This document shows positions 87 to 46,517 of a stretch of 64,000 nt of DNA, in pieces; within the stretch, counting starts at the first letter, position 1, and each line of letters opens with the position of its first letter. The stretch is from assembly GCA_964454545.1 (NCBI GenBank), contig CAYVTI010000003.1, positions 6,676 through 70,675 of the forward strand, given 5' to 3'. The position numbers were made by a program, and so were the translations under genes. This stretch comes from an uncultured Rickettsiales bacterium (GTDB taxonomy: Bacteria; Pseudomonadota; Alphaproteobacteria; Rickettsiales; JABCZZ01). The notes under the pieces are model-generated. The model was not told the DNA's origin. It saw nothing but the letters and a program-made list of their open reading frames with translations, and did not search any database.

Positions 87-695
87 ATGTCTACATCCGT
101 TCTTCCCCCGCTCGTCGGGCTAGGGTTTGATGTCGTGCGCACGCTCCTGTGGGATACGGTCGTGCAGCAATCGCTCTCCGGTAAGGAGACACGTTTTGCG
201 CGCCAGACCTATCCGCGCTGGAAATGGGATCTTGCCTATAATGTGCTGCGCAGCGGCGCAAACTATACGGAATTGCAGCAACTAGCAGGGTTCTTCAATT
301 TACGGCAGGGGCAGTTCGATACATTTTTATATCAGGACGCCGACGATAACAGCGTGACGGGACAGCCCGTAGCTACAGGCGACGGCACGACGACGGGCTT
401 TCAGCTGATACGTTCTTTCGGCGGATTTGTTGAACCGGTGCTGGCTCCCAATACGGTAAGTGCGGTGTATATAAACGGCGTTGTGCAGACCAGCGGATTT
501 TCCATCAGCGCGTGGGGCAGCGCATCTCCGGGCGTGATTACGTTTGCGTCCGCCCCGGCGATCGGCGCTGCCGTCACTGTGGATTTCACCTATTATTTCC
601 CCGTGCGCATGAGCGCGGACAGCGTGTCGTTCAATATGTTTCTTTCCGGTTATTACAAGGCCAAGAAGTTTGGTTTTATTAGTGTAAAAAATTAA
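87..695 (+). CDS. Phage distal tail protein, DUF2460/TIGR02217-like (RcGTA g12 position)
   Basis: ATG at 87, 202 aa. N-terminus MSTSVLPPLVGLGFDVVRT and C-terminal YYFPVRMSADSVSF resemble the DUF2460 phage family. It directly precedes g13/g14/g15-like genes in the canonical order. Confidence 0.75.
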   Translation: MSTSVLPPLVGLGFDVVRTLLWDTVVQQSLSGKETRFARQTYPRWKWDLAYNVLRSGANYTELQQLAGFFNLRQGQFDTFLYQDADDNSVTGQPVATGDGTTTGFQLIRSFGGFVEPVLAPNTVSAVYINGVVQTSGFSISAWGSASPGVITFASAPAIGAAVTVDFTYYFPVRMSADSVSFNMFLSGYYKAKKFGFISVKN

Positions 696-750
696 TGAGC
701 AGAGTTGCGCAATCATCTTCACTCAGCTCTAACCACTCATCCCTCTCTTT

Positions 751-1629
751 ATGAAAACAGCATCCCCAGCCCTCATCAGCCTGCTCGCCTCAAGGCAGTT
801 TTTCTTCGCCGATCTGTACCAGTTCTCGCTGGCTGGAGGCGGGCAGCTCCATTATTGCGGCGGCGATAAGGATATCCTCTGGAACGGCGTCACATGGAGC
901 GCGGGCGGCGGCATGGGGCCGTATTTCGAACGCAAGGACAACAAGGCGAAATGCCACTGGAAAGTAGGCGTGGAAGTGGATACGCTGGTGTTCGACGTAT
1001 TGCCTGGTGCTTCCACCGTCATCGGCGAGCCGTTTTTACCGGCAGTCAGGCAGGGCGTGTTCGACGGCGCTGAATTGACACTCTATCGCGCTTTCATGCC
1101 CGCCTATGGCAATGTTGCCGCGGGAACGGTCATCATGTTCGCGGGCCGCGTTGCGGAAGTGGACGCCAGCGGTTCGCTCGCCACGTTCTCCGTGAACAGC
1201 CATCTTGAACTGCTCAACCAGAACCTGCCGCGCAACCTGTACCAGTCCGGCTGCGTGAACACGCTGTATGATTCCGCCTGCACGCTGAACCAGGCGAATT
1301 TCGCAGTGGCCGGCAGCGCTTCCGGCGGTTCCACCGCAAGCGTCATCAATACATTCTTGACTCAGGCGGCGGGATATTTTGACCTGGGAGTCATTACGTT
1401 TACCAGCGGCATAAATAATGGCGTTTCACGCACGGTGAAAAACTATGCCGGTGGATCGCCATCTGCTGTCAATCTCATTGCGCCGTTTCCTTCCGCACCC
1501 GGCTCCGGGGATGCATTCTCCATCGTACCGGGTTGCGACAAACAGCAATCCACCTGCAGGAATAAATTTTTCAACCTCGTTAATTTCCGCGGGTTTCCCT
1601 ATGTGCCGGAGAACAGCACGGCGGTGTAG
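751..1629 (+). CDS. Phage tail hub protein, DUF2163 plus BR0599-type C-terminal domain (RcGTA g13-like)
   Basis: 292 aa. N-terminus ALISLLASRQFFFADLY. C-terminus CDKQQSTCRNKFFNLVNFRGFPYVPE is typical of the BR0599 domain. Confidence 0.8.
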   Translation: MKTASPALISLLASRQFFFADLYQFSLAGGGQLHYCGGDKDILWNGVTWSAGGGMGPYFERKDNKAKCHWKVGVEVDTLVFDVLPGASTVIGEPFLPAVRQGVFDGAELTLYRAFMPAYGNVAAGTVIMFAGRVAEVDASGSLATFSVNSHLELLNQNLPRNLYQSGCVNTLYDSACTLNQANFAVAGSASGGSTASVINTFLTQAAGYFDLGVITFTSGINNGVSRTVKNYAGGSPSAVNLIAPFPSAPGSGDAFSIVPGCDKQQSTCRNKFFNLVNFRGFPYVPENSTAV

Positions 1630-1713
1630 CGCAATCTCTGTGCCATGCCTTGTTTTCGCTGTGGCCTGGCGAGATCTGAACTGAATGCAATGCAAACAAG
1701 AAAGGACCTTTTT

Positions 1714-1911
1714 ATGACCATCAGAGAAGACATCGCAAGAATCGAAGGGCTTGCTGAGAAGCTGAAGAATGAAATCGAGGTGTGGTTCGAACGGCATTTC
1801 GCAACGCTTGCTCATAATCCGAAACTGGAACAGGCGAAAGCCGATCTGCATGAAATGCTAGGCACGGAGGCAACTGCGCCTGATGCGGCGGCTTCTGCTT
1901 CCGCAGCCTGA
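1714..1911 (+). CDS. Small hypothetical protein (65 aa, helical, Ala-rich tail)
   Basis: ORF opens at 1645. ATG 1714 has AAAGGA 7-8 nt upstream, and ATG 1690 is an alternative start. The stop TGA at 1909-1911 abuts the next start at 1913. No recognisable family. Confidence 0.3.
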   Translation: MTIREDIARIEGLAEKLKNEIEVWFERHFATLAHNPKLEQAKADLHEMLGTEATAPDAAASASAA

Positions 1912-1912
1912 T

Positions 1913-2386
1913 ATGCAAGATACTGAACGTGCGCGGGTGGTGGCGGTTGCGCGTGAATGGCTCGGCACGCCGTATCACACCGGAGGCAGGGTGAAAGATG
2001 CGGGTGTTGACTGCCTGACATTGCTTGCCGAAGTGTTCCATGAAGCGGGACTGGTGGAAAAGATTGACATCCCTTATTATCCAAACGACTGGCACCTTCA
2101 CCGCGCCGCCGAGCGTTACCTTGACGGGTTGCTGCAATATACGCGTGAAATATCCGCGCCGCTTCCGGGTGATATTGCGCTCTGGAAATTCGGCCGTTGC
2201 TTCAGTCACGGCGCGATTGTTATTGAGTGGCCTATCATCATCCACGCTTATGTCGGGCGCGAATGCACGCTTGAGGATGCCTCAAAGGCGAAGTGGCTTA
2301 GCCATATTGGCGAAGATGCCGGAGAAAGCGCAAAACTGAGGCCAGTGCGTTTTTTCAGCGTATTTCTAACCCGTGGCCAGAGTTGA
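1913..2386 (+). CDS. Phage cell-wall peptidase, NlpC/P60 family (RcGTA g14-like)
   Basis: 157 aa from ATG 1913 (ORF opens at 1883). REWLGTPYHTGGRVKDAGVDCLTLLAEVF gives the catalytic Cys context, and FSHGAIV gives the His. Confidence 0.8.
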   Translation: MQDTERARVVAVAREWLGTPYHTGGRVKDAGVDCLTLLAEVFHEAGLVEKIDIPYYPNDWHLHRAAERYLDGLLQYTREISAPLPGDIALWKFGRCFSHGAIVIEWPIIIHAYVGRECTLEDASKAKWLSHIGEDAGESAKLRPVRFFSVFLTRGQS

Positions 2387-2442
2387 GAGTTTAGAGTAGA
2401 GAAAAACTTTTTACTCCACTCTCGCTACTCAACTCTCAATTC
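2376..2442 (+). promoter_or_regulatory. Long imperfect hairpin, copy 1 of a conserved intercistronic element
   Basis: Left arm CCAGAGTTGAG (2376-2386, includes the stop codon of the peptidase). Right arm TACTCAACTCTCAATTCT (2425-2442). The same words recur at 10841-10876. Confidence 0.5.
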
Positions 2443-2463
2443 TAACTTCTCATCACTCATTCT

Positions 2464-5400
2464 ATGTCCTTCCTCGTTGGCATTGCAAGAACGCCGCAGG
2501 CGGCGCAACAGGCGGCTGTGTCCGGCCTGCATCTGCAGAGCTCGGTCTACGGGAAAGCGCTTCCCATTGTTTACGGCACGACGCGCATCGCGCCCAACCT
2601 TATCTGGTATGGGGATTTTGTCGCCGCTCCCCAAAGCTCATCTTCGGGTGGCGGTGGCAAGGGCGGCGTTACCGGGGGCGGAGGCAAAGGTGGCGGCGCG
2701 TCGTCCTATATCTACCAGACGGCGGTGGCGCTGGGCTTGTGCGAAGGGCCGGTGCAAGGCGTAGGCAATGTCTATGTCAGCAAGTCGGTCACGACGATTG
2801 CCGCGCTCGGACTTTCAGAATTTCCGGGGAATTACGGCCAGGCGCCGTGGGGATACCTTGCAGCCAAACATCCGGATCAGGCCATCGGTTACAGCGGCGT
2901 TGCCTATCTTGCTGCAAGCAGCTACCCGCTTGGCAGTAACGCGGAGCTGCCCAACCATAATTTCGAGGTGCAGGGGATTTATTCCACTTCGCTCTCATCA
3001 CTCGGCGTTATCGACGCTGATCCGAGCCTCGTGGTCGCCGACCTGCTTACTAATCCCAACTATGGTGCGGGATTTCCACCGGTGCGGCTGGGAAGCCTTG
3101 GCGTCTATCAGTCATACTGCCTTGCGAACGGCCTCTGGATTTCGCCCGCCTATGTCACGCAGGCGCAGGCATCGTCAATGCTTGATGATCTTGCGAAGGC
3201 GACCAACAGCGCATTCGTCTGGTCGGGCGGAGTGCTGACGCTTGTGCCTTACGGCGATCAGAGCATTACTGCGAATGGATATGGTTACACTGCGCCTTCC
3301 GTGCCGCTTTACGATCTGACCGATGACGATTTCATGGAAAATAAAAATACGGTGGCAGGAGAAAAAAAGGATGCCATATGGCTTATGCGCAAGCGCCCAA
3401 GCGATGCGCTTAATTCGGTGAAGGTGGAATGCCTTGATCGCGCCAACTCCTATAACCCGGCGGTGATCGAGGCGAAGGATCAGGCGCTCATAGGGCAGTT
3501 CGGACTGCGCCAGTCCTCCTCCGCCCAGATGCACCTGTTCGCCGATATGAACGCCGCGCGCGTGTCGGCGCAGCTCCAGCTGCAGCGGCAATATATCCGT
3601 AATATCTACCAGTTTACGCTCGACCAGCGTTATGTGCTGCTCGATCCGATGGATATCGTGACATTGACTGATCCAGGGCTTGGCCTTAACAGGCAATGGG
3701 TGCGCATTACCGAAATCACCGAGAATGACGACGGATCGCTTTCTTTCACCGCCGAGGAATATCTTTCCGGCACCGGCAGCGCGCCGCTTTACAGCTATCA
3801 GTTGGGGCAGGGTTACGCCAATAATTACAATGCCAGCCCCGGCAATGCCAACGCGCCGGTGATTTTCGAGCCGACCGCGGAACTCGCCGAAAGCCTGGAG
3901 GTATGGCTTGCGGTAAGCGGCGGCGCGTTCTGGGGCGGGTGCGACGTCTATATTTCCAACGATGGCAACAGTTATAAACTGGCCGGACGCATCAACGGTT
4001 CGGCGCGTACCGGCGTGCTCACCGCAACGCTGCCTTCCACCACCGCGAATGGAACAGGGCAGACGATCGATGTCACGAATACGCTCTCGGTTGATTTATC
4101 GCAGAGCAACGCGCAATTGCTTTCCGGCTCTCAAAGCGACGCCGTGGCGCTCGCAACGCTTTGTTATGTCGATGGTGAATATATCGCCTACCAGAACGCA
4201 ACGCTCACCGGCAGCAACCGGTATAATCTGGGCTGGCTGGTGCGCGGCGCTTACGGCACGGGCGTTTCGCAGCACTTAAGCGGCAGCAGTTTCGCACGTC
4301 TCGACAGCGGCATCTTCAAATATGCGTTCCCGCAGAATTACATCGGCTCGACCATTTACATCAAGTTTGTTTCTTTCAACATCTATGATGGCGGCCTGCA
4401 GACGCTTGCCGAGGTGCAGCCTTATGCCTATATGATCAAGGGCACGGCGTTTTCCTCGCCACTGCCCACGCCGCAGAATTTGCGCACGTCCTACGTGGCG
4501 TCGCTCACCCAGCTCATGTGGGACGCGGTGCAGGATTTCCGCAGCGTCCAGTACGAAGTGCGCAAGGGCGCGGCATGGAACGGCGCGCAGGTGCTGGGGC
4601 GTACGATCTACCCGCCCTTTACCCTGCAAGGGGACGGCACATACTGGGTCTCGGCCTACAGCCAGCCGCTGGCAGGACTGCAGGTCTACAGCGAAACTCC
4701 GGCGAGCCTTGTCGTCTCAGGCTCGGTGATCACGAGCAACGTCATCGCAAGTTACGACGAACAGGCGACCGGCTGGAGCGGAACGCTCGGAGGCACGGCG
4801 GTGGTTGCGGGCAGCAACGTCATCACCACGGGCTCCGGCAATATCTTAAGCGACGCAGATTTCCTCGGCACGGGCAATGTCTTATTTTACGGCGGCGGTG
4901 GCAACGGCACCTATGAAATTCCCGGAGCGCACCAGATCGACATCAGCCGTGCAGCGCCCTGCCAGGTGCTCGTCACCTGGACATCGCAGGGCGTCAAGAT
5001 CACTGACAATATCCTTGCGGTGTATGATTATCTGGGCGACACGGATGTTCTTGACTGGGCGGCTTCGGCCAACACTAATGTCTATCCGGAAATCGCGCTG
5101 TCGCAGAATGGCACGACATGGTCAGCGTGGCAAAAATATGCCGCGGGTACTTACAACGCACTTAAATTCAAGGCGCGGATGCAGATTCAGGTGAACGATC
5201 CACAGGTGCAGGCGATACTCTCCGGCTTCGTGTTCTCGGTAGACGTGCCCGACCGCGACGATCATTATGTGAACAAAAGCATCGCTGCGGGTGGCACCAC
5301 GATCACTTTCATGCCGGACGGCTCCGCCACCGCGACGCCATTCAACGGCGGCCCGGCAGGCTCGCCAACGCAGCCTGCCATACAGGTTACGATTCTGAAT

Positions 5401-5520
5401 GCGCAGGCAGGCGACCTTGCGATCGTAAGCAGCGTGAGCCTTTCGAGCTGCACCGTGCAGATCCTGAACGGTGGTGCAGGGGTGGTAAGGAATGTGAATT
5501 TACTGGTGCAGGGGTATTAG
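2464..5520 (+). CDS. Host-specificity / central tail fibre protein (lambda gpJ-like, RcGTA g15-like)
   Basis: 1018 aa. N-terminus GLHLQSSVYGKALPIVYGTTRIAPNLIWYGDF followed by a Gly-rich linker (GGGGKGGVTGGGGKGGG), typical of Phage-tail_3 type proteins. It occupies the position after the g14-like gene. Confidence 0.8.
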   Translation: MSFLVGIARTPQAAQQAAVSGLHLQSSVYGKALPIVYGTTRIAPNLIWYGDFVAAPQSSSSGGGGKGGVTGGGGKGGGASSYIYQTAVALGLCEGPVQGVGNVYVSKSVTTIAALGLSEFPGNYGQAPWGYLAAKHPDQAIGYSGVAYLAASSYPLGSNAELPNHNFEVQGIYSTSLSSLGVIDADPSLVVADLLTNPNYGAGFPPVRLGSLGVYQSYCLANGLWISPAYVTQAQASSMLDDLAKATNSAFVWSGGVLTLVPYGDQSITANGYGYTAPSVPLYDLTDDDFMENKNTVAGEKKDAIWLMRKRPSDALNSVKVECLDRANSYNPAVIEAKDQALIGQFGLRQSSSAQMHLFADMNAARVSAQLQLQRQYIRNIYQFTLDQRYVLLDPMDIVTLTDPGLGLNRQWVRITEITENDDGSLSFTAEEYLSGTGSAPLYSYQLGQGYANNYNASPGNANAPVIFEPTAELAESLEVWLAVSGGAFWGGCDVYISNDGNSYKLAGRINGSARTGVLTATLPSTTANGTGQTIDVTNTLSVDLSQSNAQLLSGSQSDAVALATLCYVDGEYIAYQNATLTGSNRYNLGWLVRGAYGTGVSQHLSGSSFARLDSGIFKYAFPQNYIGSTIYIKFVSFNIYDGGLQTLAEVQPYAYMIKGTAFSSPLPTPQNLRTSYVASLTQLMWDAVQDFRSVQYEVRKGAAWNGAQVLGRTIYPPFTLQGDGTYWVSAYSQPLAGLQVYSETPASLVVSGSVITSNVIASYDEQATGWSGTLGGTAVVAGSNVITTGSGNILSDADFLGTGNVLFYGGGGNGTYEIPGAHQIDISRAAPCQVLVTWTSQGVKITDNILAVYDYLGDTDVLDWAASANTNVYPEIALSQNGTTWSAWQKYAAGTYNALKFKARMQIQVNDPQVQAILSGFVFSVDVPDRDDHYVNKSIAAGGTTITFMPDGSATATPFNGGPAGSPTQPAIQVTILNAQAGDLAIVSSVSLSSCTVQILNGGAGVVRNVNLLVQGY

Positions 5521-9403: not shown

Positions 9404-9429
9404 TAATATGTACGCGCATGGAAAACTTC

Positions 9430-9459
9430 TTGCAAAATTACCGCTAACCGCCTTATAGG
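9430..9459 (+). promoter_or_regulatory. Possible sigma70-type promoter for the PelA-hydrolase-like gene
   Basis: TTGCAA (9430-9435), a 17-18 nt spacer, then TTATAG/TATAGG (9453-9459), about 30 nt upstream of ATG 9487. Confidence 0.2.
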
Positions 9460-9486
9460 GATACCCTTTACCCTCAAGGAAGCGTT

Positions 9487-10320
9487 ATGCTGCGGTATAT
9501 GATTTTACTGTGCGTCGTCCTCTGCATCGTTACCATTTGCCTCCTGTTTAACCGGCAGGAGAAGTGGGCAGCCTATTACGGCCATGACGTACCCTATGCC
9601 GAGCTTGAGGATTTCAACGTCCTGGTGTTCGACAGCGACAACCATCCGCCGCTTGCGCCGCTCAAGGCTGCGCGCAAGACCGTGCTGGGTTATATCAGCC
9701 TCGGCGAAGCCGATCCGGCCAGGGATTATTATTCCGTCCTCGCGCAGGAGGATCTCCTGCTGTCCGGAGATCCGGCATCCAACGGGCAGACAGTTATCGA
9801 TGTGCGCAATCCCAAGTGGGGCGATTATGTCATAAGAGTCCTCGTGCCCAAGATCATGGCGCAGGGGTTTGACGGCATTATGATCGATACGGTGGACAGC
9901 ATCATCCAGACGGAAGTGAGCGCGCCGCGCCGCTATGCTGGCATGCAGAAGGCCGCGGCGCGGATAATAAAAGATATCCGCATGCATTATCCTAACCTCA
10001 AAATTATGGTTAACCGAGGATTTGCTATCCTTCCCATGGTGGCGGGCGATATAGACATGGTGCTGGCGGAAAGCACTTACAGCACTGTCTCGCCGGATAC
10101 GAAACAGCATATGTTGCGTCCGCAGGAAGAATACAAGAATATCGTCAGGCTGCTTAATAACGTGAAAAGGCAGTCGGCATCGCTGAAAATATACACGCTC
10201 GATTACTGGCCTCAGGAGGACGGGGAGAACGTCAAACGTATCTATGCCGCGCAGCGCGGCGAGGGGTTTATTCCCTACGTGTCAACGCAGGATCTGCAAT
10301 CTCTCTATCACGAGCCATAA
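9487..10320 (+). CDS. Stand-alone PelA-hydrolase-type glycoside hydrolase (GH114/GH166-like TIM barrel) with an N-terminal membrane anchor
   Basis: 277 aa with AAGGAAG SD. Anchor MLRYMILLCVVLCIVTICLLF. Motifs VLGYISLGE, DGIMIDTVDS, KIMVNRGF, YTLDYWP and GFIPYVSTQDL match, from memory, the FAYLSVGE / LFLDTLDS / FFNRGFE / VAIDYLPP / GYVPFVSTPALD series of the Pseudomonas PelA hydrolase domain. Confidence 0.75.
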   Translation: MLRYMILLCVVLCIVTICLLFNRQEKWAAYYGHDVPYAELEDFNVLVFDSDNHPPLAPLKAARKTVLGYISLGEADPARDYYSVLAQEDLLLSGDPASNGQTVIDVRNPKWGDYVIRVLVPKIMAQGFDGIMIDTVDSIIQTEVSAPRRYAGMQKAAARIIKDIRMHYPNLKIMVNRGFAILPMVAGDIDMVLAESTYSTVSPDTKQHMLRPQEEYKNIVRLLNNVKRQSASLKIYTLDYWPQEDGENVKRIYAAQRGEGFIPYVSTQDLQSLYHEP

Positions 10321-10383
10321 AGAATTATACGACTTTATGTTGTGGGGCCGTCGCATGGAACTCCTCCACCTATCCACCTTGCC

Positions 10384-10836
10384 ATGTATCATTTTATGCT
10401 TTCTCTAAATTCCGCAGGGCTTGCGCTGATCAAGTCTTTTGAAAGCTTCCGCGCGCGGCCTTATCAGGATAGCGGCGGGGTATGGACCATAGGTTACGGG
10501 CACACGCAGGATGTTACTCCTGAAAGCCCGCCGGTTATGGAAGAGGAGGCGGAAGAGTTCCTGCGCGAGGATCTGGCGGATGCGCAGGATGCAGTCGGGC
10601 GGCTCGTGCATGTTCCCTTGAACGACGACCAGTATTCCGCGCTGGTTTCGCTAGTCTATAACACAGGCCCGGCGCCGCTCACCCATACGCTAGGTGCCTT
10701 GCTGAATGAGGGACATTACGATGCTGCGGCGGATGAGTTTCTCAGGTGGAACCATGCGGATGGCGAAGCAAGCGAAGGGCTTACGAGGAGACGGAAGGTG
10801 GAAAGAGAATTATTTTTAAGCAGTGGCAAGAGCTGA
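10384..10836 (+). CDS. Phage endolysin, GH24 lysozyme
   Basis: LSLNSAGLALIKSFESFRARPYQDSGGVWTIGYGHT with the catalytic Glu context. The start is uncertain (GTG 10342, ATG 10384 or ATG 10396). Confidence 0.85.
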   Translation: MYHFMLSLNSAGLALIKSFESFRARPYQDSGGVWTIGYGHTQDVTPESPPVMEEEAEEFLREDLADAQDAVGRLVHVPLNDDQYSALVSLVYNTGPAPLTHTLGALLNEGHYDAAADEFLRWNHADGEASEGLTRRRKVERELFLSSGKS

Positions 10837-10903: not shown

Positions 10904-11383
10904 ATGACCGAAGAAACACAAACAGCGCCTTCGCTTATCTACGATGTCGTGTGTACAGATGCAGAAGGCCGGGAAAAATGGCGCGAGCGCGTGCATAACC
11001 TTGTTACGGCTGTCGGAAAAACCGATATCATCGATAAATATTTCAAAGGCTCTGCCTATACGGCGGCATGGTATCTTGGGCTGAAAGCCAGCGGTACGGC
11101 AGTCTCCGGCGATACGCTTGCCTCGCACAGCGGCTGGAGCGAAATCACGCCTTATTCCGGCAATCGTCCCGCCATCACTTTCGGCGCCAGCTCCGGCGGA
11201 AGCAATACCGCGAACGCGGTGGGCATTTCCATCAACGCGACCGCGACCATTTCCGGCGCGTTCATCGCAAACGCGAACAGCGGCACCAGCGGGATTTTAT
11301 ACAGCGCAAGCGATTTCAGCGTGGCGCGCACTGTTGCAAGCGGCGACACACTCTCCGTCACGCCGACGGTTTCGGTGTCTTAA
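10904..11383 (+). CDS. Phage hypothetical protein (159 aa), probably structural
   Basis: ATG at 10904 with AAAGGA SD (ORF opens at 10847). Gly/Ser/Thr/Ala-rich beta-type sequence (..GWSEITPYSGNRPAITFGASSGG..GDTLSVTPTVSVS). No family named. Confidence 0.5.
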   Translation: MTEETQTAPSLIYDVVCTDAEGREKWRERVHNLVTAVGKTDIIDKYFKGSAYTAAWYLGLKASGTAVSGDTLASHSGWSEITPYSGNRPAITFGASSGGSNTANAVGISINATATISGAFIANANSGTSGILYSASDFSVARTVASGDTLSVTPTVSVS

Positions 11384-14386: not shown

Positions 14387-14491
14387 CCAGTCCACTTGTC
14401 ATGCCCGCGCAGGCGCATCTTAACATACTAAAGAGCTAAAATTCCCGCTTTCGCAGGAATGACAATTATTACCCGGATATCAGAATATCAT

Positions 14492-16369
14492 ATGACGACC
14501 GAACAATTCTCCAACCTGGCGCAGACGACGCTCGCCAGCACCGTTAGCGCGGGCGCGACTTCGCTTATCGTGGCATCCGCCTCCGGATTTCCTGCGGGCG
14601 GGCAATTCCGCATCGTCATCGATCAGGAAATATTCCTGGTGACGGCGGTTTCCGGCGTTACTTTTACCGTGACTCCGGGGTATGAGGGCACGATGCAGGC
14701 CGCTCATGCGGGCGGCGCTGCGGTGGCGCACATTCTTACTGCCGGGGTGATCTCGCAGATATACAATAACGCGCTTAATTTCGCCACGCCGCGTATTCAG
14801 GCATTCGGCGATTCGCGTGCTTCCTACTGTGGCCTTAACGTCAACCAGTCGAGTTCGACGTTTGCCAACCCGGCGATGGAATATCCAAACCGCTCGCCGG
14901 TTGCCTGGGCTAACCGCTTCCTGCGCGGGCGGCTCAACTTCGATCTGACGCTTGGCTATATCGGCCAGTTTCAGGCGGTGTGCAGCGTGAAAGTGGTGAA
15001 TGGCGGCTCCAATTACACGTCGCCTTCGGTGTCATTTTCCGGCAGCGGCACAGGGCTTACCTTTGGCGCTCCGGTAGTATCGGGCGGGGTCATCAAAAGC
15101 GTGCCGGTGACGGCGCAAGGCATCAATTTTACCTCGCTGCCCACGTTGAGCGTGAGCGACTCCACCGGATCAGGCGCGGTATTGCAGGCCGTTATCGGCG
15201 GCACGGGAACATTCGGCGTCGCCGGGGAGACTACGATGCAGTGCGTCAACCGCCTGTCCGATATCGCTTCGGTGGCGGCGGATATCGTGTTTGTCTGCAT
15301 AGGCACTAATGACATTACCAACGGCGTTTCCGCGGCAACTACAAAGGCCAACCTGCAGACGATATTCGATACGTTAATTGCAGCGGGGAAGATGGTCGTC
15401 TATTGTCCGGATCAGGCGCGCAGCTACTGGGCATCGCTTACCGGCAGCCAAATCACCAACGCCCGCCACCAGATGTATAATGTGAAGCGCTGGGCATACC
15501 AGTACGCATTGCTTGCGAACGGCAAGAACCCGAACGGCAACAGGAAAATCATTATCTGCGACGCGGAGGATTTCTGGGCGGATGCGACAAGCAGCACTGG
15601 CAATCCGCTTTCGCTCATGACCTCCGATGGCCTGCACTGGTCGACCGCGAGCGCGCAGGCGATGGGGCTGAGACTTGCGCAGCAATTGCAGCCGCTGCTG
15701 GGACTCTCGGGGCCTGCCATGATCATAAGCCAGGTGGATGGGTACGATGCGACCTATAATCCCGATGGCGCGCTCAATTTCGGCTGGCTGATGAATGCCA
15801 CTCCCGGCACGCCTACAGCACCGGTTACCGGAAGCATCGCCGGAAATTTCAGCGCATTCCGCAGCTCCGGCTCGGCGACCGGCACGATGGCGGGTTCCAT
15901 CGAATCGGTACGCACGGACGGCTTAAGCGGCAACCGGCAGGTGTTCACGTTTTCACTCGGCAGCGGCACGAGCAGCGAGCAATATAATTTCGGCATCACG
16001 AGCAGCGCGATTTCATCCTATAATATCAGCGTTGGCGATACGATCAGCGTCGAATGCGACATGTGGCTTTCGGGGCAGGCGAACGTGAACCGCCTGCTGC
16101 TGCAAATCAACTTCACCCAAAGCGGCACGACGGCTATGCAGGCGATGGACGGCGACAATGTCACCGATAAATTCATCGCCTCCGGCGCGTATATGGCGAT
16201 TGCCGGGGATACAAATCCGATGACTTTCCGCACGCCGCCGGTCATTGTTCCCTCCGGCGCCGATCATTTGACCTGCTATGCTATCATTGGTTTTGACGCA
16301 AGCGGCGGCGCAGGCTCAGCGACCGCTACATGGAAGATCGGGAATTTCAGGATAAGAAAAGTGGTGTAG
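14492..16369 (+). CDS. Tail fibre / tail spike with an SGNH (GDSL) esterase domain
   Basis: 625 aa from ATG 14492 (ORF opens at 14459). Fibre-type N-terminus MTTEQFSNLAQTTLASTVSAGATSLIV. SGNH blocks AFGDSRAS, VCIGTNDI and SDGLHWS. Confidence 0.7.
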   Translation: MTTEQFSNLAQTTLASTVSAGATSLIVASASGFPAGGQFRIVIDQEIFLVTAVSGVTFTVTPGYEGTMQAAHAGGAAVAHILTAGVISQIYNNALNFATPRIQAFGDSRASYCGLNVNQSSSTFANPAMEYPNRSPVAWANRFLRGRLNFDLTLGYIGQFQAVCSVKVVNGGSNYTSPSVSFSGSGTGLTFGAPVVSGGVIKSVPVTAQGINFTSLPTLSVSDSTGSGAVLQAVIGGTGTFGVAGETTMQCVNRLSDIASVAADIVFVCIGTNDITNGVSAATTKANLQTIFDTLIAAGKMVVYCPDQARSYWASLTGSQITNARHQMYNVKRWAYQYALLANGKNPNGNRKIIICDAEDFWADATSSTGNPLSLMTSDGLHWSTASAQAMGLRLAQQLQPLLGLSGPAMIISQVDGYDATYNPDGALNFGWLMNATPGTPTAPVTGSIAGNFSAFRSSGSATGTMAGSIESVRTDGLSGNRQVFTFSLGSGTSSEQYNFGITSSAISSYNISVGDTISVECDMWLSGQANVNRLLLQINFTQSGTTAMQAMDGDNVTDKFIASGAYMAIAGDTNPMTFRTPPVIVPSGADHLTCYAIIGFDASGGAGSATATWKIGNFRIRKVV

Positions 16370-16446
16370 CGAGTAAGGAGTCGCGAATTGCGCGGGTATG
16401 TGGAGGAGCGTTAGCGACGCCCCCTTGCAATAAAGAATAATCCTAT

Positions 16447-16914
16447 ATGATACTTTCAGCCAATTACGCAGCCTCACCCTATGGCAGCATTGCCTACGGC
16501 GCACGCGGCCAGGCAAACTATGCGAGCGCCACCAGCGACGCCGTTACGGGTGCAGATGCGCTTGCTGCCATTGCGGCATGTGTATCTTCCACCGCCGAGG
16601 CGGTTACAGGCAGTGATAGTATTTCCGCGATTGCAGCCTTCTATCCAGGCTTTGCCGAATCGGTCACGGGCAGCGATCTGCTTGCGTTGATACTATATGC
16701 AAGCGATCAGATACGCAGCCTGATAACGGCGGCTGATTTCGGCGCTTCCTATATATTCCATCCTGCGGACGTATTCGATGCGCAAGAATACAGGATGTTC
16801 AACGTCCCGGCAGAAAAACGGGCAGGGACGGCAGAGTTGCACGCGCCTGTATCTGTAAACGCGGAGAACCGGCAGGCGGCGGCAAATCCGGAAAACAGGA
16901 ATTTCAAGGCATGA
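16447..16914 (+). CDS. Phage hypothetical protein (155 aa) with internal AVTG-x-D-x3-AIAA repeats
   Basis: ATG start. Three repeats: DAVTGADALAAIAA, EAVTGSDSISAIAA and ESVTGSDLLALIL. It follows the fibre gene. Confidence 0.5.
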   Translation: MILSANYAASPYGSIAYGARGQANYASATSDAVTGADALAAIAACVSSTAEAVTGSDSISAIAAFYPGFAESVTGSDLLALILYASDQIRSLITAADFGASYIFHPADVFDAQEYRMFNVPAEKRAGTAELHAPVSVNAENRQAAANPENRNFKA

Positions 16915-17000
16915 AAGCGGTGATCAGTGACCCGTGGTTTGCAATGGTTACTGATCGCTGGACACTCTCCGCATCGTTTCAGCCACCATAGGAGTATATT

Positions 17001-17297
17001 ATGAGCATGATCGGCACCAAAACGCCTGACGAAATAAAAGACTATTCACTCGACTGGTCAAAGGACATCGGCACCGATGTCATAGCGAATAGCGCAAACA
17101 GCGCATGGACGGTTTCGCCCTCCGACGTAACCATCACCCAGAGTTCGCTTGCCTCGAACGGTACGCTTACGACCGTGTGGGTATCGGGCGGGACGATAGG
17201 GCAGGCATACCAGGTGAAGAACCGTATTGTGACCACATCCGGGCGCAATCTGACTAAGGTGTTCAGGCTGCTGGTAGTGGGGAGTAATTATCTTTAA
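17001..17297 (+). CDS. Small virion protein, fibre-tail adaptor-like (98 aa)
   Basis: GGAG SD. N-terminal KTPDEIKDYSLDWSKDIG motif, as seen in phage fibre-adaptor type proteins. Confidence 0.45.
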   Translation: MSMIGTKTPDEIKDYSLDWSKDIGTDVIANSANSAWTVSPSDVTITQSSLASNGTLTTVWVSGGTIGQAYQVKNRIVTTSGRNLTKVFRLLVVGSNYL

Positions 17298-34698: not shown

Positions 34699-36096
34699 AT
34701 GCCATTGCGCAGCAGGATCATTCACGGCAGCGTTCTGGCACTGTGGATCGCGCTGCTCTGCATGGCCTTTATGCGGAACAGCGTTTTTGCCTGGTCCGTC
34801 GGCCTTGCCTATATCGGTTACGACACGCTGCTGCTTGCCTTCGTCTTCGTGCAGACCCTGAGCCTGCTGAAGACAAGCCCACCTCCGCCTGCGGGAGTCC
34901 GCAGCACGGTAAGCGTTGTGGTTGCGGTGTATAATGAAGCGGAAATTCTGCCGGCTAATATTGAGGCGCTTCTTAAGCAATCGGATCCTCCTGACCACAT
35001 CATTATTGCCGATGACGGATCGACGGATGCTACTTCCGAAATATTAGCCGGGCGCTATGGCATACAGGTCCCGGCATACGGAGAGATTAGCCCGCCCGGT
35101 TCCCTGTACCCATCCTTGCGCTGGCTGCGCCTGCCGCATGGCGGAAAAGCCAGAACGCTGAACAGCGCGATTTCCTTCGTCAGCACGGATGTCGTTCTGA
35201 CGGTGGATGGCGATACGCTGCTGGATAGAGAAGCTATAGGGGCAGTGCGGCGCGCCTTTTCGTCTGATGCCGATCTGGCCGCCGTGACCGGCGTGCTCAT
35301 TCCGGTTTGCAGCGGTTCGCTGGCCGGGAAATGCTTTCAATTCTTCCAGACCTATGAATATATCCGCAACTTCATTTCGCGTTACGCATGGATGCGCAAG
35401 GATAGCTTATTGCTGGTATCCGGCGCTTTTGCCGGTTTCCGCAGGGATGCGCTGGTTGCAGCAGGGGGCTTCGATCCGGACTGCCTGGTGGAGGATTATG
35501 AATTAATTCACCGGCTGCACCGCTATAGTGCCCTGCACCGGCTGCCGTGGCGGATTCGCGTTCTTGGCGAAGCGCGTGCGCTGACCCATGCCCCGAGCAG
35601 CATAAGCGCATTCCTGCGCCAGCGGCGGCGGTGGTTCGGAGGTTTTCTGCAAACGCATTACTGGTACCGTGATATGGTGGGCAACGCGTTCTACGGCTCT
35701 CTTGGAACGCGGATGCTTCCGGTGAAAGCTGTCGACACGCTACAGCCTGTCTACGGCCTTACGGCGTTCATTCTCCTGATAGGTTTTCTGGCCACAGGCA
35801 GGTCCAGCATTCTTATCCCGGTGGCCGCCGCGATGGGCGTCAAGATCGCAATTGATCTCGCGTTTCATGTGTGGTCCGTCCACCTGTACAGGCGGTGGGT
35901 GGGCAACGTTACCCGGGTCAACTTTATCAGGGCATTAGTGTCGGCTGTCGCCGAGCCGTTCACCTTTCAGATATTACGCCATCTCGGGGCTGTCTGGGGA
36001 TGGGCGTCCATTCTCACCGGGCACTGGGACGCCTGGGGAAAACAGAGCCGTGCGGACGCTCAGGCAGGACTCATTCACAGCCGGATTATTCGTTAA
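34699..36096 (+). CDS. Processive family-2 glycosyltransferase (PgaC/NodC/cellulose-synthase-like), membrane-embedded
   Basis: Motifs VSVVVAVYNE, ADDGSTD, VDGDTLL, VEDYEL and QRRRW, with TM segments at both ends. The ORF opens at TTG 34636. The stop codon overlaps the pelG stop (36093-36096). Confidence 0.75.
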   Translation: MPLRSRIIHGSVLALWIALLCMAFMRNSVFAWSVGLAYIGYDTLLLAFVFVQTLSLLKTSPPPPAGVRSTVSVVVAVYNEAEILPANIEALLKQSDPPDHIIIADDGSTDATSEILAGRYGIQVPAYGEISPPGSLYPSLRWLRLPHGGKARTLNSAISFVSTDVVLTVDGDTLLDREAIGAVRRAFSSDADLAAVTGVLIPVCSGSLAGKCFQFFQTYEYIRNFISRYAWMRKDSLLLVSGAFAGFRRDALVAAGGFDPDCLVEDYELIHRLHRYSALHRLPWRIRVLGEARALTHAPSSISAFLRQRRRWFGGFLQTHYWYRDMVGNAFYGSLGTRMLPVKAVDTLQPVYGLTAFILLIGFLATGRSSILIPVAAAMGVKIAIDLAFHVWSVHLYRRWVGNVTRVNFIRALVSAVAEPFTFQILRHLGAVWGWASILTGHWDAWGKQSRADAQAGLIHSRIIR

Positions 36097-37481
36097 GCCA
36101 CCTTCAGCGAATTGTTGTTCGTGATGAACGCATGGTACGGCAGGTTGCGCAAGTGGGCGAACAGCGCAATCGTCGTCGTCACGAAGATGACGAGCGACGC
36201 GGCAAAATAGCCGTATCCGTAATAAGGGAAGCCGAGATCGATGGTGAACAGGGTAAACACCGAGTTGGAAACCAGGAACATGCCCTGGATCCACAGGGTT
36301 ATCCTGCGGCAGTCGAAATAGGAGAGGATAATCAGCTCGAACAGCGTGAGCACATGGAAGAAGGCGCCGAGCGTCCCGAGACGGAAGATCCCGATCTGCA
36401 GATAATTGATGTCGAACATCTCAAACAGCTTTGAAGCAGTGAGGATGGAAACCAGCGTGATGGCGCCCTGCACCACGAAGAAATTACGCGAGCTTTCAAG
36501 CAGGGTCCTGATAATGTCCTGATGGTTCTTCCTTATGGTTATGAGCGGCTTATGGGCGAGGATGTCTTCATAGAAACGCTGGTATTTCGTAAAAAAGTTG
36601 GTTTCGATGCTGAAAATAAATATCGCCATGGCGGGCACGATGGTGAGATAGGCGAGGAACATCGCGCTGTCGTAATTGGGATAATAGGTCATTTTGCTGG
36701 GCAGCGTGACGGCTTCCGGCGCGAACATCCACATCAACCATTTATCAGCCCAGATGGCGGCGTTGTACAGGCAGCCGCTCACCGCGAGTTCCCAATACTT
36801 GATGAAATACTGGTGCAGGCTGGTGTTACTTACGAGCCTGTACGGATATTCGGCGAAGACTTTGCCGATAAGCGAGAATGCGATCCATGTGACACCGATA
36901 TTAAAGCCGTTTAACATCCCGACCGCGCCGTAATCAAACTTGAACAGGTAGCTGAAAATGATGGCAAGCAGCATGCCGACGCCAAACGCACGGCTTACGG
37001 TTTTATAGTCCTTGAGCGCCGTCATATAGACGCCGAGCAGCCAGACGGAGGAAATCAGGAACAGGTTGATGATGGCGCTGAGCCGCATGCTCAGGTCCAT
37101 ATTGGTGTAGAAGCCGTAATAGAAGAACGCTACCGGCACCAGGATGCAGTAGAGCATGACCAGGCTGTCCAGCATCACTGTCGGGACGTTGGTGACATCC
37201 TTCCTATGGATGCAGTCGGCGAGATAACGGGTGATGACCATGTAGATAGGGGCGGAAAGCACCAGCGAGAAGCCGAAATTATATACTACCACGATGCGGA
37301 AGTTGACCAGCTGATCGATGGTGAAATAGTTGAGGAAGAGCAAGGAAATGCTGCCAAGCGCCAGCACGGTGAAGAGCCAGGGGCCGGTCGAGGCTATGGT
37401 GGCATGCACATACGCTCCCGCGATGCCCAATAGATCATCCTTGCCTGCAAGACGCTTCAGCTCGAACCCAATACCCGCCAT
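36093..37481 (-). CDS. pelG: Pel polysaccharide membrane protein PelG
   Basis: 462 aa with about 12 TM segments. N-terminus MAGIGFELKRL..LLGIAGAYVHATIASTGPW is typical of PelG. It is the last gene of a pelDEFG block. Confidence 0.8.
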   Translation of the reverse strand: MAGIGFELKRLAGKDDLLGIAGAYVHATIASTGPWLFTVLALGSISLLFLNYFTIDQLVNFRIVVVYNFGFSLVLSAPIYMVITRYLADCIHRKDVTNVPTVMLDSLVMLYCILVPVAFFYYGFYTNMDLSMRLSAIINLFLISSVWLLGVYMTALKDYKTVSRAFGVGMLLAIIFSYLFKFDYGAVGMLNGFNIGVTWIAFSLIGKVFAEYPYRLVSNTSLHQYFIKYWELAVSGCLYNAAIWADKWLMWMFAPEAVTLPSKMTYYPNYDSAMFLAYLTIVPAMAIFIFSIETNFFTKYQRFYEDILAHKPLITIRKNHQDIIRTLLESSRNFFVVQGAITLVSILTASKLFEMFDINYLQIGIFRLGTLGAFFHVLTLFELIILSYFDCRRITLWIQGMFLVSNSVFTLFTIDLGFPYYGYGYFAASLVIFVTTTIALFAHLRNLPYHAFITNNNSLKVA

Positions 37482-37487
37482 ATGCTG

Positions 37488-38978: not shown

Positions 38979-40153
38979 ACTTTATTTCCTGATAACTTAT
39001 TTCCTGCCCAGAGGGAGAGTGCTTCGCGCATTCCCGGATTTAAGGCGGCGGCCTGTATCGATACCGGCGGGAGGCTGGCGCGGTACCTGCGCAGATCGTC
39101 GTAACGGCCACAGGCGAAGAGCGCTTCGCTGTACCACAGGGATATGGAGTCCGAGGCATAACCGGCAGTGATGCACTGACGGAACCAATCGCATGCCTTG
39201 GTATATTCTTTCTCGCGCATCAGTATGCGACCGATGCGGTTGCGCGGCTCGATGTCCTGCGGCTGCATCTGGAGGTACTCATTGTAATATTCAAGCGCTT
39301 TCTGGCGGTTGAGCTGCTCACGGTCGAAATCGAGCAGGCCGGTATAGGCATAATTGTCATAATGCTCGGCAAGCGCCCAGGTGACCAGGTGATCCTTCGG
39401 ATGAAGGTTCTTTATCTCGGCCAGCTGCATCATGCGCTTCAGAAAGATGGATTCCACCTTGCTGATGCCGGTTGCGGCCATGACGCGGATGGTGTTGCTG
39501 CTGTCGCTGAGCGCCTTGCGGAACACGGGAGCGAAATTCGGATGGAAATGGGACGTGGCTTTGGCCAGCGCCTGGCGTTTCTGCACTTCGCTGCCGAACG
39601 ACAGTACGTCCATGAATGAAACCACGCTATAGGGAACGCTCGATTCATCGCGGCCGATGACGATGTCGTCATAGATACGCTGGGAAATGGTCTGCAGCTG
39701 CCTCGGGAAGATGCTTTCGAACCATTCCTCGAACGCGAGCGCGTGGCGGTTGCCCCACAGGTAGGTGAGAATGGACAGTACAGAGCCAGCGGCACCGAAC
39801 GGCCCGGTCATCATGACGGATATCAGCATGAGCCACATGAAGCGCGCTTCGGAGCCGCGTCTCATCAATACCGCAAATACGGCCAGTATCATTACGGTGA
39901 GCATATGCAGGAAGAGCCCTGCCAGCGGAGATATATTGTTCCTGATAATGCCATAGAGCAGAAAGAACTCCAGCGGCGTGATTATGAGGCTTGCCAGCAG
40001 GGTGACAAAGCCGCCGTTTTTTTCGCGTTGCAGATCATGGATGTCCGGTGTGGTAAGGTATTCGTCTACAGCTTTCGATGCTTCGTAAGCGGGAGATATT
40101 TTATTTGGTGCGTTTCTCATACACGGTCTGAACGGTAAAACTGAAATTTGCAT
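38975..40153 (-). CDS. pelE: PelE-like inner-membrane TPR protein
   Basis: TM segments in the N-terminal half and TPR-like repeats in the C-terminal half. It sits between pelD and pelF, with an ATGA overlap with the pelF start. The start is uncertain (40153 or 40120). Confidence 0.6.
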   Translation of the reverse strand: MQISVLPFRPCMRNAPNKISPAYEASKAVDEYLTTPDIHDLQREKNGGFVTLLASLIITPLEFFLLYGIIRNNISPLAGLFLHMLTVMILAVFAVLMRRGSEARFMWLMLISVMMTGPFGAAGSVLSILTYLWGNRHALAFEEWFESIFPRQLQTISQRIYDDIVIGRDESSVPYSVVSFMDVLSFGSEVQKRQALAKATSHFHPNFAPVFRKALSDSSNTIRVMAATGISKVESIFLKRMMQLAEIKNLHPKDHLVTWALAEHYDNYAYTGLLDFDREQLNRQKALEYYNEYLQMQPQDIEPRNRIGRILMREKEYTKACDWFRQCITAGYASDSISLWYSEALFACGRYDDLRRYRASLPPVSIQAAALNPGMREALSLWAGNKLSGNKV

Positions 40154-41474: not shown

Positions 41475-41510
41475 ACGTGTGTTTCCATCGGGACTGATTT
41501 TACTGTGAAG

Positions 41511-46171: not shown

Positions 46172-46271
46172 AATAACTTAGTTAATTATTATTAATAAGT
46201 CTAAAACGGCGAAGCGGAAAATAGCGGAAAAATATTTTTATTCAACCAGAAAAGTAAATCTTCTTTAACAA

Positions 46272-46463: not shown

Positions 46464-46517
46464 CCAGCCTTGCAGTGGGGGTGTTTATAAGATCGAAAAC
46501 TTGCAACAGTAATGGCT

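Follow-up and report, generated by a model that had tools for sequence, protein, structure and literature searches.

A PelA-type hydrolase gene in the lysis region of a phage-derived element, and a pel operon without it, in an uncultured Rickettsiales bacterium

The hydrolase gene and the pel operon

The stretch of DNA analyzed here (the window) is 64,000 nt of contig CAYVTI010000003.1 from an uncultured Rickettsiales bacterium. It contains genes of a phage-derived element and a pel operon. A 277 amino acid (aa) protein with similarity to the hydrolase domain of PelA is encoded within the element, between a holin-like gene and a gene for a GH24 endolysin. Stand-alone genes of this type are designated pelAH. 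The pel operon of the window is complete except for the hydrolase, which is present neither as a gene nor as a domain. The coordinates of these and other features are in Table 1.

The open reading frame (ORF) of the hydrolase starts with an ATG at position 9487, with the sequence AAGGAAG 5 nt upstream of the start. An earlier note on this DNA, made from the sequence alone, had assigned the product to the PelA-hydrolase type, and the five motifs it listed (VLGYISLGE, DGIMIDTVDS, KIMVNRGF, YTLDYWP and GFIPYVSTQDL) are all present. The product matches Pfam family Glyco_hydro_114 (PF03537) at residues 30–271 with an E-value of 3.8e-21 and a score of 75.8 bits (cutoff 27). Its best sequence match in the PDB by phmmer is the PelA hydrolase domain 5TCB (E 4.5e-23; query residues 28–271, chain residues 28–267), followed by the full-length PelA of P. 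thermotolerans, 9CGY. The GH191 protein TM1410 is far behind. An AlphaFold2 model, made with 37 homologues as input, has a mean predicted local distance difference test (pLDDT) value of 95.5. The top Foldseek match of the model in the PDB is again 5TCB, with an E-value of 1.1e-19, a template modeling (TM) score of 0.87 and a root mean square deviation of 2.7 Å. In the Foldseek ranking 5TCB, 5TSY and 9CGY (E 1e-19 to 1e-16) precede GH191 (approximately 1e-15) and the GH114 protein Ega3 (2.6e-10). The (beta/alpha)8 barrel thus resembles the PelA hydrolase domain more closely than it does the sister families GH114, GH191 and GH135. Identity to PelA is approximately 26% across the fold alignment.

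Mutations of D160 and E218 inactivate the hydrolase of P. aeruginosa PelA (PMC12022489). Sequence alignment gives D134 and E195 as the equivalent residues in the window protein, and both are invariant across the 37-sequence family alignment. The window copy and a second phage-borne copy, described below, keep 21 of 21 invariant family positions, the catalytic residues included. Judged by alignment and modeled fold, the product is a GH166/PelAH-type enzyme and not a member of an unrelated TIM-barrel family, 5TCB being first in both phmmer and Foldseek. The earlier assignment therefore stands. Pel is the putative substrate by homology. The linkage to pel genes that marks the PelAH family is not present here, as the gene is approximately 26 kb from pelG and within phage-derived DNA. 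Its GC content and its GC content at third codon positions (GC3) are the same as those of the element and the host.

The N-terminal membrane anchor described in the earlier note is also found in the model, where residues 2–20 form one long hydrophobic helix. The hydrophobic stretch leads straight into NRQEKW, and there is no AxA-type or other small-residue cleavage site. Homologues that adjoin a pelA deacetylase gene mostly have classic signal peptides (AFA-Q, AYA-Q, SHA-N, where the hyphen marks the cleavage point). Uncleaved-looking anchors are found in both phage-borne copies and in the hydrolase genes of operons without a deacetylase gene. The hydrolase is thus predicted to be Sec-exported and tethered to the inner membrane, facing the periplasm, which would put it at the normal site of action of the PelA hydrolase domain. 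It is a single domain with a Sec-type signal anchor and no virion-attachment domain, and because of these two properties it is not expected in the particle. A direct role in virion entry, which the earlier note had considered when it proposed that the enzyme might admit virions, is unlikely.

The operons without a deacetylase gene form a minority with the order pelX-pelAH-pelB (L004, L006, L008, L015, L035, L039, L051 and L089; the labels Lnnn are loci from related genomes or elements that were compared with the window). Where the N-termini were read (L004, L006, L015 and P0008/L089), the hydrolase has a membrane anchor and not a signal peptide.

The PelA protein of the window consists of the remaining parts of the enzyme. 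The 801-aa ORF aligns to full-length PelA 9CGY with an E-value of 2.9e-50 but only from chain residue 259 on, and the hydrolase domain in 9CGY is at chain residues 6–247. Query positions 256–379 and 452–701 match chain residues 441–562 and 566–813, and the deacetylase-containing C-terminal two-thirds thus appears to be present. The ORF has no Pfam GH114 match, and the hydrolase family profile is silent on it even at an E-value of 10. These results agree with the earlier note, which could not find the hydrolase motifs in this PelA. A search of the six-frame translation of the 64 kb with the hydrolase profile, with filters off, gave a single match, the ORF at 9487–10320 (E 1.8e-122). The next best match has an E-value of only 1.5, and there was no second hydrolase in the window by this search or by tblastn. 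The likely start of pelA is M7, the ATG of which overlaps the pelX stop codon.

Two other properties of the operon were observed. PelB in the window (41511–46171) appears to be encoded by two ORFs with a 4-nt overlap, a 1083-aa tetratricopeptide part and a 470-aa ORF, and the same layout is present in L090, L091 and L093. No pelC-sized lipoprotein gene is visible in the operon.

Table 1. Positions of the hydrolase gene, its neighbors and the pel genes in the window, with cargo sites of related elements
Feature	Position	Strand	Basis or remark
Tail-tip module, RcGTA/phiJL001 type	87..5520	+	Pfam, PHROGs, NCBIfam
Tail fiber gene, 415 aa	7700..8947	+	phrog_4492 E 3.5e-24; phrog_20370
53-aa ORF after tail fiber gene	8949-9110	+	
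Holin-like gene, 93 aa	9122..9403	+	Coiled-coil-like N-terminal part, single C-terminal transmembrane segment
Cassette leader, 83 bp	9404..9486	+	TTGCAA 9430-9435 and TATAGG 9454-9459 (18 nt apart); Shine-Dalgarno-like AAGGAAG 9476-9482
pelAH-type gene	9487..10320	+	277 aa, stand-alone GH166/PelA-hydrolase-like TIM barrel
Apparently uncleaved signal anchor, residues 1-22 of the hydrolase	9487-9552	+	N-terminus compared with relatives
Cassette trailer, 75 bp	10321..10395	+	No terminator-like hairpin
GH24 endolysin gene	10396..10836	+	Phage_lysozyme PF00959 E 1.2e-39; phrog_7 endolysin E 1.8e-49
Gp80-like fiber protein, directly 3' of the endolysin gene	10904..11383	+	PF23140 E 1.6e-6; 67-77% identical in related elements
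Further phage-derived genes	14459..17294	+	Pfam/PHROG; synteny with L002, L225, L226, L228-L230
GDSL/SGNH-esterase fiber-like protein	14459-16369	+	
155-aa ORF and Gp77-like ORF (Gp77-like about 17001-17294)	within 14459..17294	+	
pel operon	36093..49825	-	Pfam matches: Epimerase, TPR, GAF_3, DUF3492+GT1, PelG
pelG	36093-37481	-	
pelF (DUF3492 + GT4)	37488-38978	-	
pelE	38975-40153	-	
pelD (GAF domain)	40101-41474	-	
470-aa ORF	41511-42923	-	
pelB, TPR part, 1083 aa	42920-46171	-	
pelA, reductase-like and deacetylase parts only	46518..48905	-	801-aa ORF 46518-48923; 795 aa from likely M7 start
pelX stop/pelA start overlap, ATGA	48902..48905	-	Site where related genomes hold pelAH
pelX, PelX-like epimerase	48902-49825	-	
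Cargo sites in related elements (positions in those loci)	L229 15413-17705; L002 4228-5533; L230 3290-5390, 15241-16197		

The usual location of the gene can be seen in other genomes. A database search gave 219 stand-alone homologues of approximately 260–300 aa. A scan with one genome per species gave 375 hydrolase loci, and the best 80 of these (38–50% identity) were examined. In approximately 75 of the 80 the hydrolase gene is in a pel operon, next to pelX, pelA or pelB. The typical order is pelX-pelAH-pelA(deacetylase)-pelB-...-pelG, with the genes joined by 4-nt overlaps where these were read. The hosts of operon-borne copies are alphaproteobacterial metagenome-assembled genomes (MAGs), many of them labeled Rickettsiales, as well as Azospirillum, Gammaproteobacteria, Chlamydiae, Acidobacteriota and others. 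The nearest non-phage homologues (49–52% identity) are between pelX and pelA with 4-nt overlaps. A few orphan copies are present in unrelated chromosomal settings far from pel, e.g., in L005 and L032. Since approximately 75 of the 80 loci carry a separate pelAH, PelA was already split in this part of the tree. The statement in the earlier note that the hydrolase is normally fused to PelA is thus not correct for these genomes; the fused form applies to Pseudomonas.

The closest PelA deacetylase proteins form a group of four (57–61% identical), from the window, L090, L091 (a MAG labeled 'Rickettsiales bacterium') and L093. In all four genomes pelX is followed directly by pelA. More distant PelA relatives (45–51%) have the hydrolase gene between pelX and pelA. 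By parsimony, this distribution suggests that the operon copy of pelAH was lost at the base of this small four-genome clade.

A classical GH114 gene (282 aa; L090 3032–3880, ENA contig k141_2656670) is found 6 kb upstream of pelX in L090. It was considered as a relative of PelAH and rejected, as it is unrelated by BLAST and there is no such gene at the syntenic position in the window.

The phage-derived element and the holin-lysozyme junction

The genes that flank the hydrolase gene are phage-derived, as the earlier note had stated, with tail genes present on both sides. The tail-tip module encodes an Rcc01695-family distal tail protein (DUF2460), a baseplate hub (phiJL001 Gp84_N and BR0599), an NlpC/P60 peptidase and a 1018-aa megatron-like protein. 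The hydrolase gene is inside the element and not at its edge, because phage-derived genes continue to the right of it, at 14459..17294. The left part of the element is outside the window, and no tRNA gene is found at the element border as an attachment site. Part of the earlier description of the lysis region needs a reservation. The endolysin gene is well identified by its Phage_lysozyme match, but the 93-aa protein has no family match in Pfam, PHROG or NCBIfam, and the designation holin-like is a label given by position only. This gene was also called as 93 aa in an independent assembly, and 41 homologues were found. The mechanically called ORF of the endolysin starts with a GTG at 10342; homology in the alignment with L002 begins at the ATG at 10396, which is the likely start.

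The distance between the holin-like gene and the lysozyme gene in the window is 992 bp (9404–10395). It is made up of the 83-bp leader, the hydrolase gene and the 75-bp trailer, which together are referred to here as the cassette. In five elements without the hydrolase (L224, L225, L226, L228 and L229), the lysozyme gene is 5–61 nt after the holin homologue. In L230 the junction (10280–11049) holds an unrelated AT-rich insert of 770 bp that encodes a 93-aa protein with two transmembrane segments. Thus the hydrolase is present in two of the eight related elements examined (window and L002) and absent in six. The junction is a general, recurrent cargo-insertion site in this element family. Because it also takes unrelated cargo or none, position alone is no proof of a lysis role.

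The earlier note had proposed that the gene has its own promoter. This is tentatively indicated by the two boxes in the leader, as the pattern TTGCWA-N18-TATAGG is conserved between the window and L002 while the spacer between the boxes has diverged, and it occurs once in the window where 0.03 occurrences are expected. A generic sigma-70 scan of positions 7400–12600 is, however, at chance, with 5 sites against 3.7 ± 1.7 expected. A terminator scan of the same region also gave counts at chance level. L002 displays a strong terminator-like hairpin immediately after the hydrolase stop codon (10848–10868; 9 pairs, 7 of them G-C), followed by a T-rich tract, with a fold z-score of -2.2. The flanks of the cassette were also considered as remnants of the 3' end of pelX or the 5' end of pelA. 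This was rejected, as the translated flanks show no similarity to PelX C-termini or PelA N-termini by inspection.

The nearest homologue of the hydrolase is 54% identical and is encoded on L002, an ENA metagenome contig, in the same arrangement. Between L002 and the window the holin-like proteins are 74% identical, the lysozymes 60–63%, the Gp80-like proteins 75% and the preceding tail proteins 78–81%. The 205-kb contig of L002 also carries the pel operon L090. In both genomes, genes for a dienelactone hydrolase, an aldo-keto reductase and an approximately 626-aa protein of unknown function are upstream of pelX, and the right border of the element is formed by genes for an M50 peptidase, NagZ, a SPOR-domain protein and ArgS. 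The pel operon and the element converge in both, approximately 12 kb apart beyond ArgS. A third element, L230, is located at the same M50-NagZ-SPOR-ArgS border, which makes this one chromosomal locus in three genomes.

Comparison of the window with L002/L090 shows similar divergence of element and host, with identities of 54–81% for element proteins and 56–85% for host proteins. The 54% identity of the hydrolase is close to that of the periplasmic and outer-membrane Pel proteins (PelA 59%, PelB 59%, the 470-aa protein 56%). The cytoplasmic and inner-membrane Pel proteins are 77–85% identical between the window and L090. The lysis genes and the hydrolase gene are intact in both diverged elements. 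In neighbor-joining trees the hydrolases of the window and L002 are a sister pair (87–92% bootstrap) among alphaproteobacterial operon copies. The deeper position of the pair changes with the region used: trees that include the N-terminus place it with the anchored hydrolases encoded in pelX-pelAH-pelB operons, and trees of the catalytic domain alone place it with the signal-peptide type from pelX-pelAH-pelA operons. Support is below 25% at all deeper nodes. The shared locus and synteny, the matching divergence, the host-like GC and GC3 and the sister relationship of the hydrolases suggest long residence and co-divergence with the host rather than recent import.

The relation of the element to phages and gene transfer agents (GTAs) was also compared. 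At family level there are matches to the Rcc01695-family distal tail protein, the phage/GTA baseplate hub (above cutoff), NlpC/P60 and the GTA megatron, the last with 147.7 bits where the cutoff is 800. The RcGTA-type tail module is also present in true phages in IMG/VR. A related hub protein is found on 50 IMG/VR contigs with up to 67% identity, and in the contig closest by hub the upstream region is that of a normal siphovirus, with neck, tube and a long tape measure. The tape-measure gene is very short in the element family, 238–273 aa (L084 811–1632; L002 1789–2610; L230 957–1673), compared with 788 aa in the related IMG/VR phage L174. In L230 a minus-strand gene (1–275) is only 1.4 kb upstream of the tape-measure gene. 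The short tape measure could mean that the particle is GTA-like with a short tail, or that the gene cluster is split or truncated. Together with the chromosomal locus common to three genomes and the lack of a tRNA gene at the border, it gives no more than a hint of a domesticated, GTA-like element.

Other segments of the element vary between relatives. The tail fiber has a conserved N-terminus and a variable C-terminus. Between the megatron-like gene and the tail fiber gene (window 6038–7448) there are two ORFs that are in none of the related elements examined. One encodes a 322-aa protein with no family match. The other, with a lower GC content (0.46), encodes a protein of 130 aa with curlin repeats (Pfam Curlin_rpt, E 2.8e-14) and a likely signal peptide; it would be a second biofilm-matrix-type cargo of the element. 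Directly 3' of the Gp80-like gene, at approximately 11430–14015, is a gene for a beta-class carbonic anhydrase (Pro_CA, E 9e-19). After it come a plus-strand ORF of 80 aa and two ORFs on the minus strand without family match, one of the latter with a GC content of 0.41. This segment breaks up the string of phage-derived genes and is missing in L002, L225, L226 and L228. Related elements have PemK/MazE-like and PIN/RHH toxin-antitoxin pairs, AHSA1 and MarR genes and an insertion sequence (rve transposase) between conserved tail genes. This cargo points to long-resident, cargo-accumulating elements. In L179 (7096–8711), an IMG/VR relative, a gene for an SGNH-type esterase and one for a 135-aa protein are found upstream of a 50%-identical lysozyme gene. 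The topology of the 135-aa protein is reversed, with the transmembrane segment first and the coiled coil after it. The holin-like gene is not conserved in the wider phage group.

Possible roles of the phage-borne hydrolase

Phage morons are cargo genes that form independent transcription units between genes that are adjacent in related phages, e.g., bor and lom of lambda and the morons of the HK97 family. The favored reading, to which a probability of roughly 40% is given, is that the relocated pelAH is cargo of the moron type that trims Pel in trans while the element is resident and is boosted together with the lysis genes on induction. According to this reading, a cassette of approximately 1 kb was inserted between the holin-like and endolysin genes of a phage-derived element that has an RcGTA/phiJL001-type tail module and has long been resident. 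The cassette would be transcribed at a low level from its own promoter-like boxes during residence. The hydrolase would cut the host's alpha-1,4-linked polymer of N-acetylgalactosamine (GalNAc) and galactosamine (GalN), i.e., Pel, on its way from the PelDEFG synthase to PelB, and would thus supply in trans the trimming that the operon no longer encodes. Pel would as a result be shorter and secreted, and aggregates would be less adhesive. Once the lysis genes are on, the cassette would also be read through, since there is no terminator towards either neighbor in the window copy, and at lysis the hydrolase may additionally loosen the matrix around the lysing cell. Both the topology of the hydrolase and the timing of its expression are inferred.

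This reading is favored because the enzyme is predicted to be tethered to the membrane, the junction is prone to take up cargo, the leader has promoter-like boxes, and the hydrolase has diverged in step with the periplasmic Pel proteins. The element family also bears further host-type cargo, namely the curlin-repeat and carbonic anhydrase genes of the window and the toxin-antitoxin, MarR and AHSA1 genes of relatives. In-trans supply is also supported by the pel operon, which is nearby and complete yet without the hydrolase. The same anchor type occurs in hydrolase genes of pelX-pelAH-pelB operons. The hydrolase activity of PelA yields secreted low-molecular-weight Pel and reduces adherence (PMC9894940); it shapes secreted Pel and adherence but is not required for synthesis (PMC9894940; PMC7112168). 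The proposal in the earlier note that the host Pel pathway relies on the prophage enzyme is too strong.

Several observations weigh against the favored reading. Only two elements, both from uncultured organisms, bear the hydrolase and six do not, and the backbone of L229, which has no hydrolase, is closer to the window than that of L002, which has it. From this it follows that the cassette was lost repeatedly or moved by recombination and was not stably kept. The promoter inference comes from two sequences with a poor -10 box (TATAGG), in a region where the generic scan is at chance. There is no terminator after the window copy (fold z-score +0.86), so that the full anatomy of a moron is not displayed, and the composition of the cassette is the same as that of its neighbors, unlike that of many morons. 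Pel specificity comes from homology only, at the low identity to PelA given above. L091 and L093 have the emptied operon slot with no phage-borne copy shown, in a comparison that covered their loci and the window; a hydrolase may be dispensable, or a further copy may be present outside the window. A lysis-timed role would account at least equally well for the exact placement, with the holin-like gene on one side and the lysozyme gene on the other.

Such a lysis-timed role is the strongest of the alternatives and only a little less likely than the favored reading. Expression would be confined to the time of the late lysis genes, with export of the hydrolase just before lysis and its release along with envelope debris. 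The hydrolase would cut the Pel matrix that holds the producer cell in an aggregate, so that phage or GTA-like particles diffuse out and reach neighboring cells, in the manner of an accessory lysis-cassette enzyme. The gene shares its strand with the holin-like and GH24 lysozyme genes and is located exactly between them; it has a good ribosome-binding site, and in the window neither side has a terminator. The second, diverged element has the same placement, although in L002 the terminator-like hairpin separates the hydrolase and lysozyme genes. The lysis and hydrolase genes are intact after long divergence, and a lysis function of the element thus seems to be under selection. The patchy distribution among elements counts in favor of an egress enzyme. 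Against it, six of the eight related elements manage without the hydrolase, and the unrelated cargo at the same junction makes position weak evidence. Exogenous PelA hydrolase disperses Pel biofilms (as cited in PMC9894940 and PMC7112168). However, a matrix depolymerase that has to diffuse would be poorly served by an anchor that is strongly hydrophobic and apparently uncleaved, and before lysis an anchored enzyme would reach the nascent polymer only.

A more far-reaching possibility is improbable. It is that the lineage gave its Pel-trimming hydrolase to a vertically inherited, domesticated element, GTA-like or tailocin-like, approximately 12 kb from the pel operon side. Loosening of the matrix would then be genetically coupled to programmed lysis and particle release, as an inbuilt switch that ties biofilm dispersal to the production of phage or gene-transfer particles, and the operon copy would have been lost as redundant.

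It is distinctly unlikely that the gene is a hitch-hiker, i.e., a neutral passenger that is being lost, or that it has been re-purposed for another polymer that contains GalN/GalNAc, e.g., in a capsule or in a competitor's matrix. Its presence in two of eight elements would agree with this, and of the genes conserved between the two elements it has diverged most (54%). Orphan copies are found far from pel elsewhere (L005, L032), and the related families GH114 and GH191 act on other galactosaminoglycans (PMC12054363). The retention of all 21 invariant positions and both catalytic residues in both phage-borne copies does not fit a passenger, nor does an ORF that is intact after divergence comparable to that of host genes. 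Both hosts also have a complete pel operon, approximately 12–26 kb away, that lacks exactly this activity.

A receptor-destroying enzyme, comparable to a neuraminidase, is very unlikely. Pel or a related GalNAc polymer would be the adsorption receptor, and hydrolase made in the producer would strip it from the dying cell and its debris and thus prevent re-adsorption. The enzyme would indeed be made in the producer and act on the producer's surface polymer, and several fiber proteins with polysaccharide-modifying domains, e.g., the GDSL/SGNH esterase, suggest a polysaccharide receptor. Nothing points to Pel as that receptor, however, most related elements with the same fiber genes are without the hydrolase, and the enzyme is predicted to be tethered on the periplasmic side.

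A chimeric contig that joins pel-operon and phage DNA has practically no chance of being the explanation: the source appears to be a metagenome-derived assembly, but in an independent Logan assembly of run SRR12266071 the holin-like gene, the hydrolase gene and the start of the lysozyme gene are on one contig with 97–100% protein identity, and an unrelated ENA assembly has the same arrangement with proteins 54–81% identical.

Novelty and comparison with known systems

Searches of viral sequences gave no close counterpart. A scan of IMG/VR with the hydrolase family alignment found no relatives. The 130 IMG/VR loci that have a related tail hub or lysozyme likewise gave no tblastn match to the hydrolase. 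The only tblastn matches in INPHARED, to Pseudomonas phage SCYZ1 and Ralstonia phage phiRSL1, are of 25–27% and cover half of the protein. Nothing specific on Pel depolymerases or on PelA-type hydrolases encoded by phages was found in a literature search. No report or database instance was found of a PelAH-type gene in a phage lysis cassette, or of a host operon that lacks the gene while a resident element carries it. The earlier note had suggested that the arrangement is undescribed. This does not hold for its components, as a split pair of hydrolase and deacetylase genes is known in Bacillus cereus and viral GH114 genes have been listed. The lysis-cassette position together with the emptied operon slot does appear undescribed.

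The role of the glycoside hydrolases of synthase-dependent exopolysaccharide systems (PelA, PgaB, BcsZ, PslG) is still debated. The Pel hydrolase sets the balance between cell-bound and secreted polymer and is not needed for synthesis (PMC9894940). In the window this hydrolase is separated from its pathway and placed under a phage-derived element, in a lineage with a cleanly closed operon slot. With expression in the resident state, this would be a case of lysogenic conversion of biofilm mechanics via complementation of a pathway gene. With expression at lysis only, the hydrolase would be an egress enzyme directed at the matrix, and no such kind of enzyme is documented for Pel. The arrangement is rare and could link biofilm loosening to phage biology, and the two hydrolase-bearing and six hydrolase-less sister elements provide ready comparisons. 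The split order pelX-pelAH-pelA is the rule in many Gram-negative phyla, which is relevant to annotation; some NCBI records name the operon-borne gene 'endo alpha-1,4 polygalactosaminidase'.

The closest characterized protein is P. aeruginosa PelA's hydrolase domain (PelAh, GH166; 5TCB/5TSY; 9CGY). The fold is the same, the similarity extends over the whole domain and the catalytic residues have equivalents. Both act in the periplasm, by prediction for the window protein. The PelA hydrolase is the N-terminal domain of a soluble bifunctional enzyme of approximately 950 aa encoded in a pel operon. In contrast, the window protein is a stand-alone protein of 277 aa, predicted to be membrane-anchored, and its gene is within phage-derived DNA.

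PelAH of Bacillus cereus ATCC 10987 (BCE_5582, 276 aa) is encoded by a separate gene and has an N-terminal export signal, and the pelA of this organism encodes the deacetylase only (Whitfield et al. 2020, PMC7112168). Biofilm biomass increases when BCE_5582 is deleted; a detached hydrolase is thus able to work in trans (PMC7112168). The window resembles this system in the separate hydrolase gene, the deacetylase-only pelA, the size of the protein and the N-terminal export signal. The B. cereus gene, however, adjoins the pel operon in ordinary chromosomal DNA of a Gram-positive organism, whereas the window copy is approximately 26 kb away, in a phage lysis cassette of a Gram-negative lineage. 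The operon-borne stand-alone hydrolases of alphaproteobacterial, gammaproteobacterial, chlamydial and acidobacterial genomes belong to the same family, have the same length and are 38–53% identical. They are translationally coupled to pelX and pelA, unlike the window copy with its own non-coding flanks, signal anchor and phage neighbors.

Tailspikes and the hyaluronidase HylP of Streptococcus pyogenes prophages are virion-borne polysaccharide depolymerases. As in the window, a phage-encoded enzyme is directed against the host's own extracellular polysaccharide. Those enzymes, however, are domains of large structural proteins in the particle, whereas the window hydrolase is predicted to be a small Sec-type membrane protein and has no virion-attachment domain. 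The best viral structural match is of the virion-borne kind. It is orf52 of Pseudomonas phage SCYZ1, a 1036-aa protein encoded among particle and tail-fiber genes, with a distant GH114-like domain (BFVD E 1.2e-12; tblastn identity 27% over half of the query). Auxiliary genes annotated as GH114 have been reported on rumen viral contigs (bioRxiv 10.1101/2023.03.20.532305). That virome study is a survey at the level of CAZy annotation and has no tie to Pel, lysis cassettes or gene loss from an operon.

Two other phage systems provide comparisons for the position of the gene. LysB of mycobacteriophages is an accessory lysis-cassette enzyme that is conserved across the group of phages that have it; its target is an envelope layer by which lysis is blocked. 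The window hydrolase is similar in being an extra envelope- or matrix-degrading enzyme encoded between or beside holin and endolysin genes. It differs in that it is present in two of eight related elements and that its putative target is a secreted matrix polymer. In comparison with phage morons, the composition of the cassette is not atypical and the window copy has no terminator. The likeness to morons consists in the insertion between genes that are adjacent in relatives, the leader with promoter-like boxes, the terminator-like hairpin in L002 and a function of the host-physiology type.

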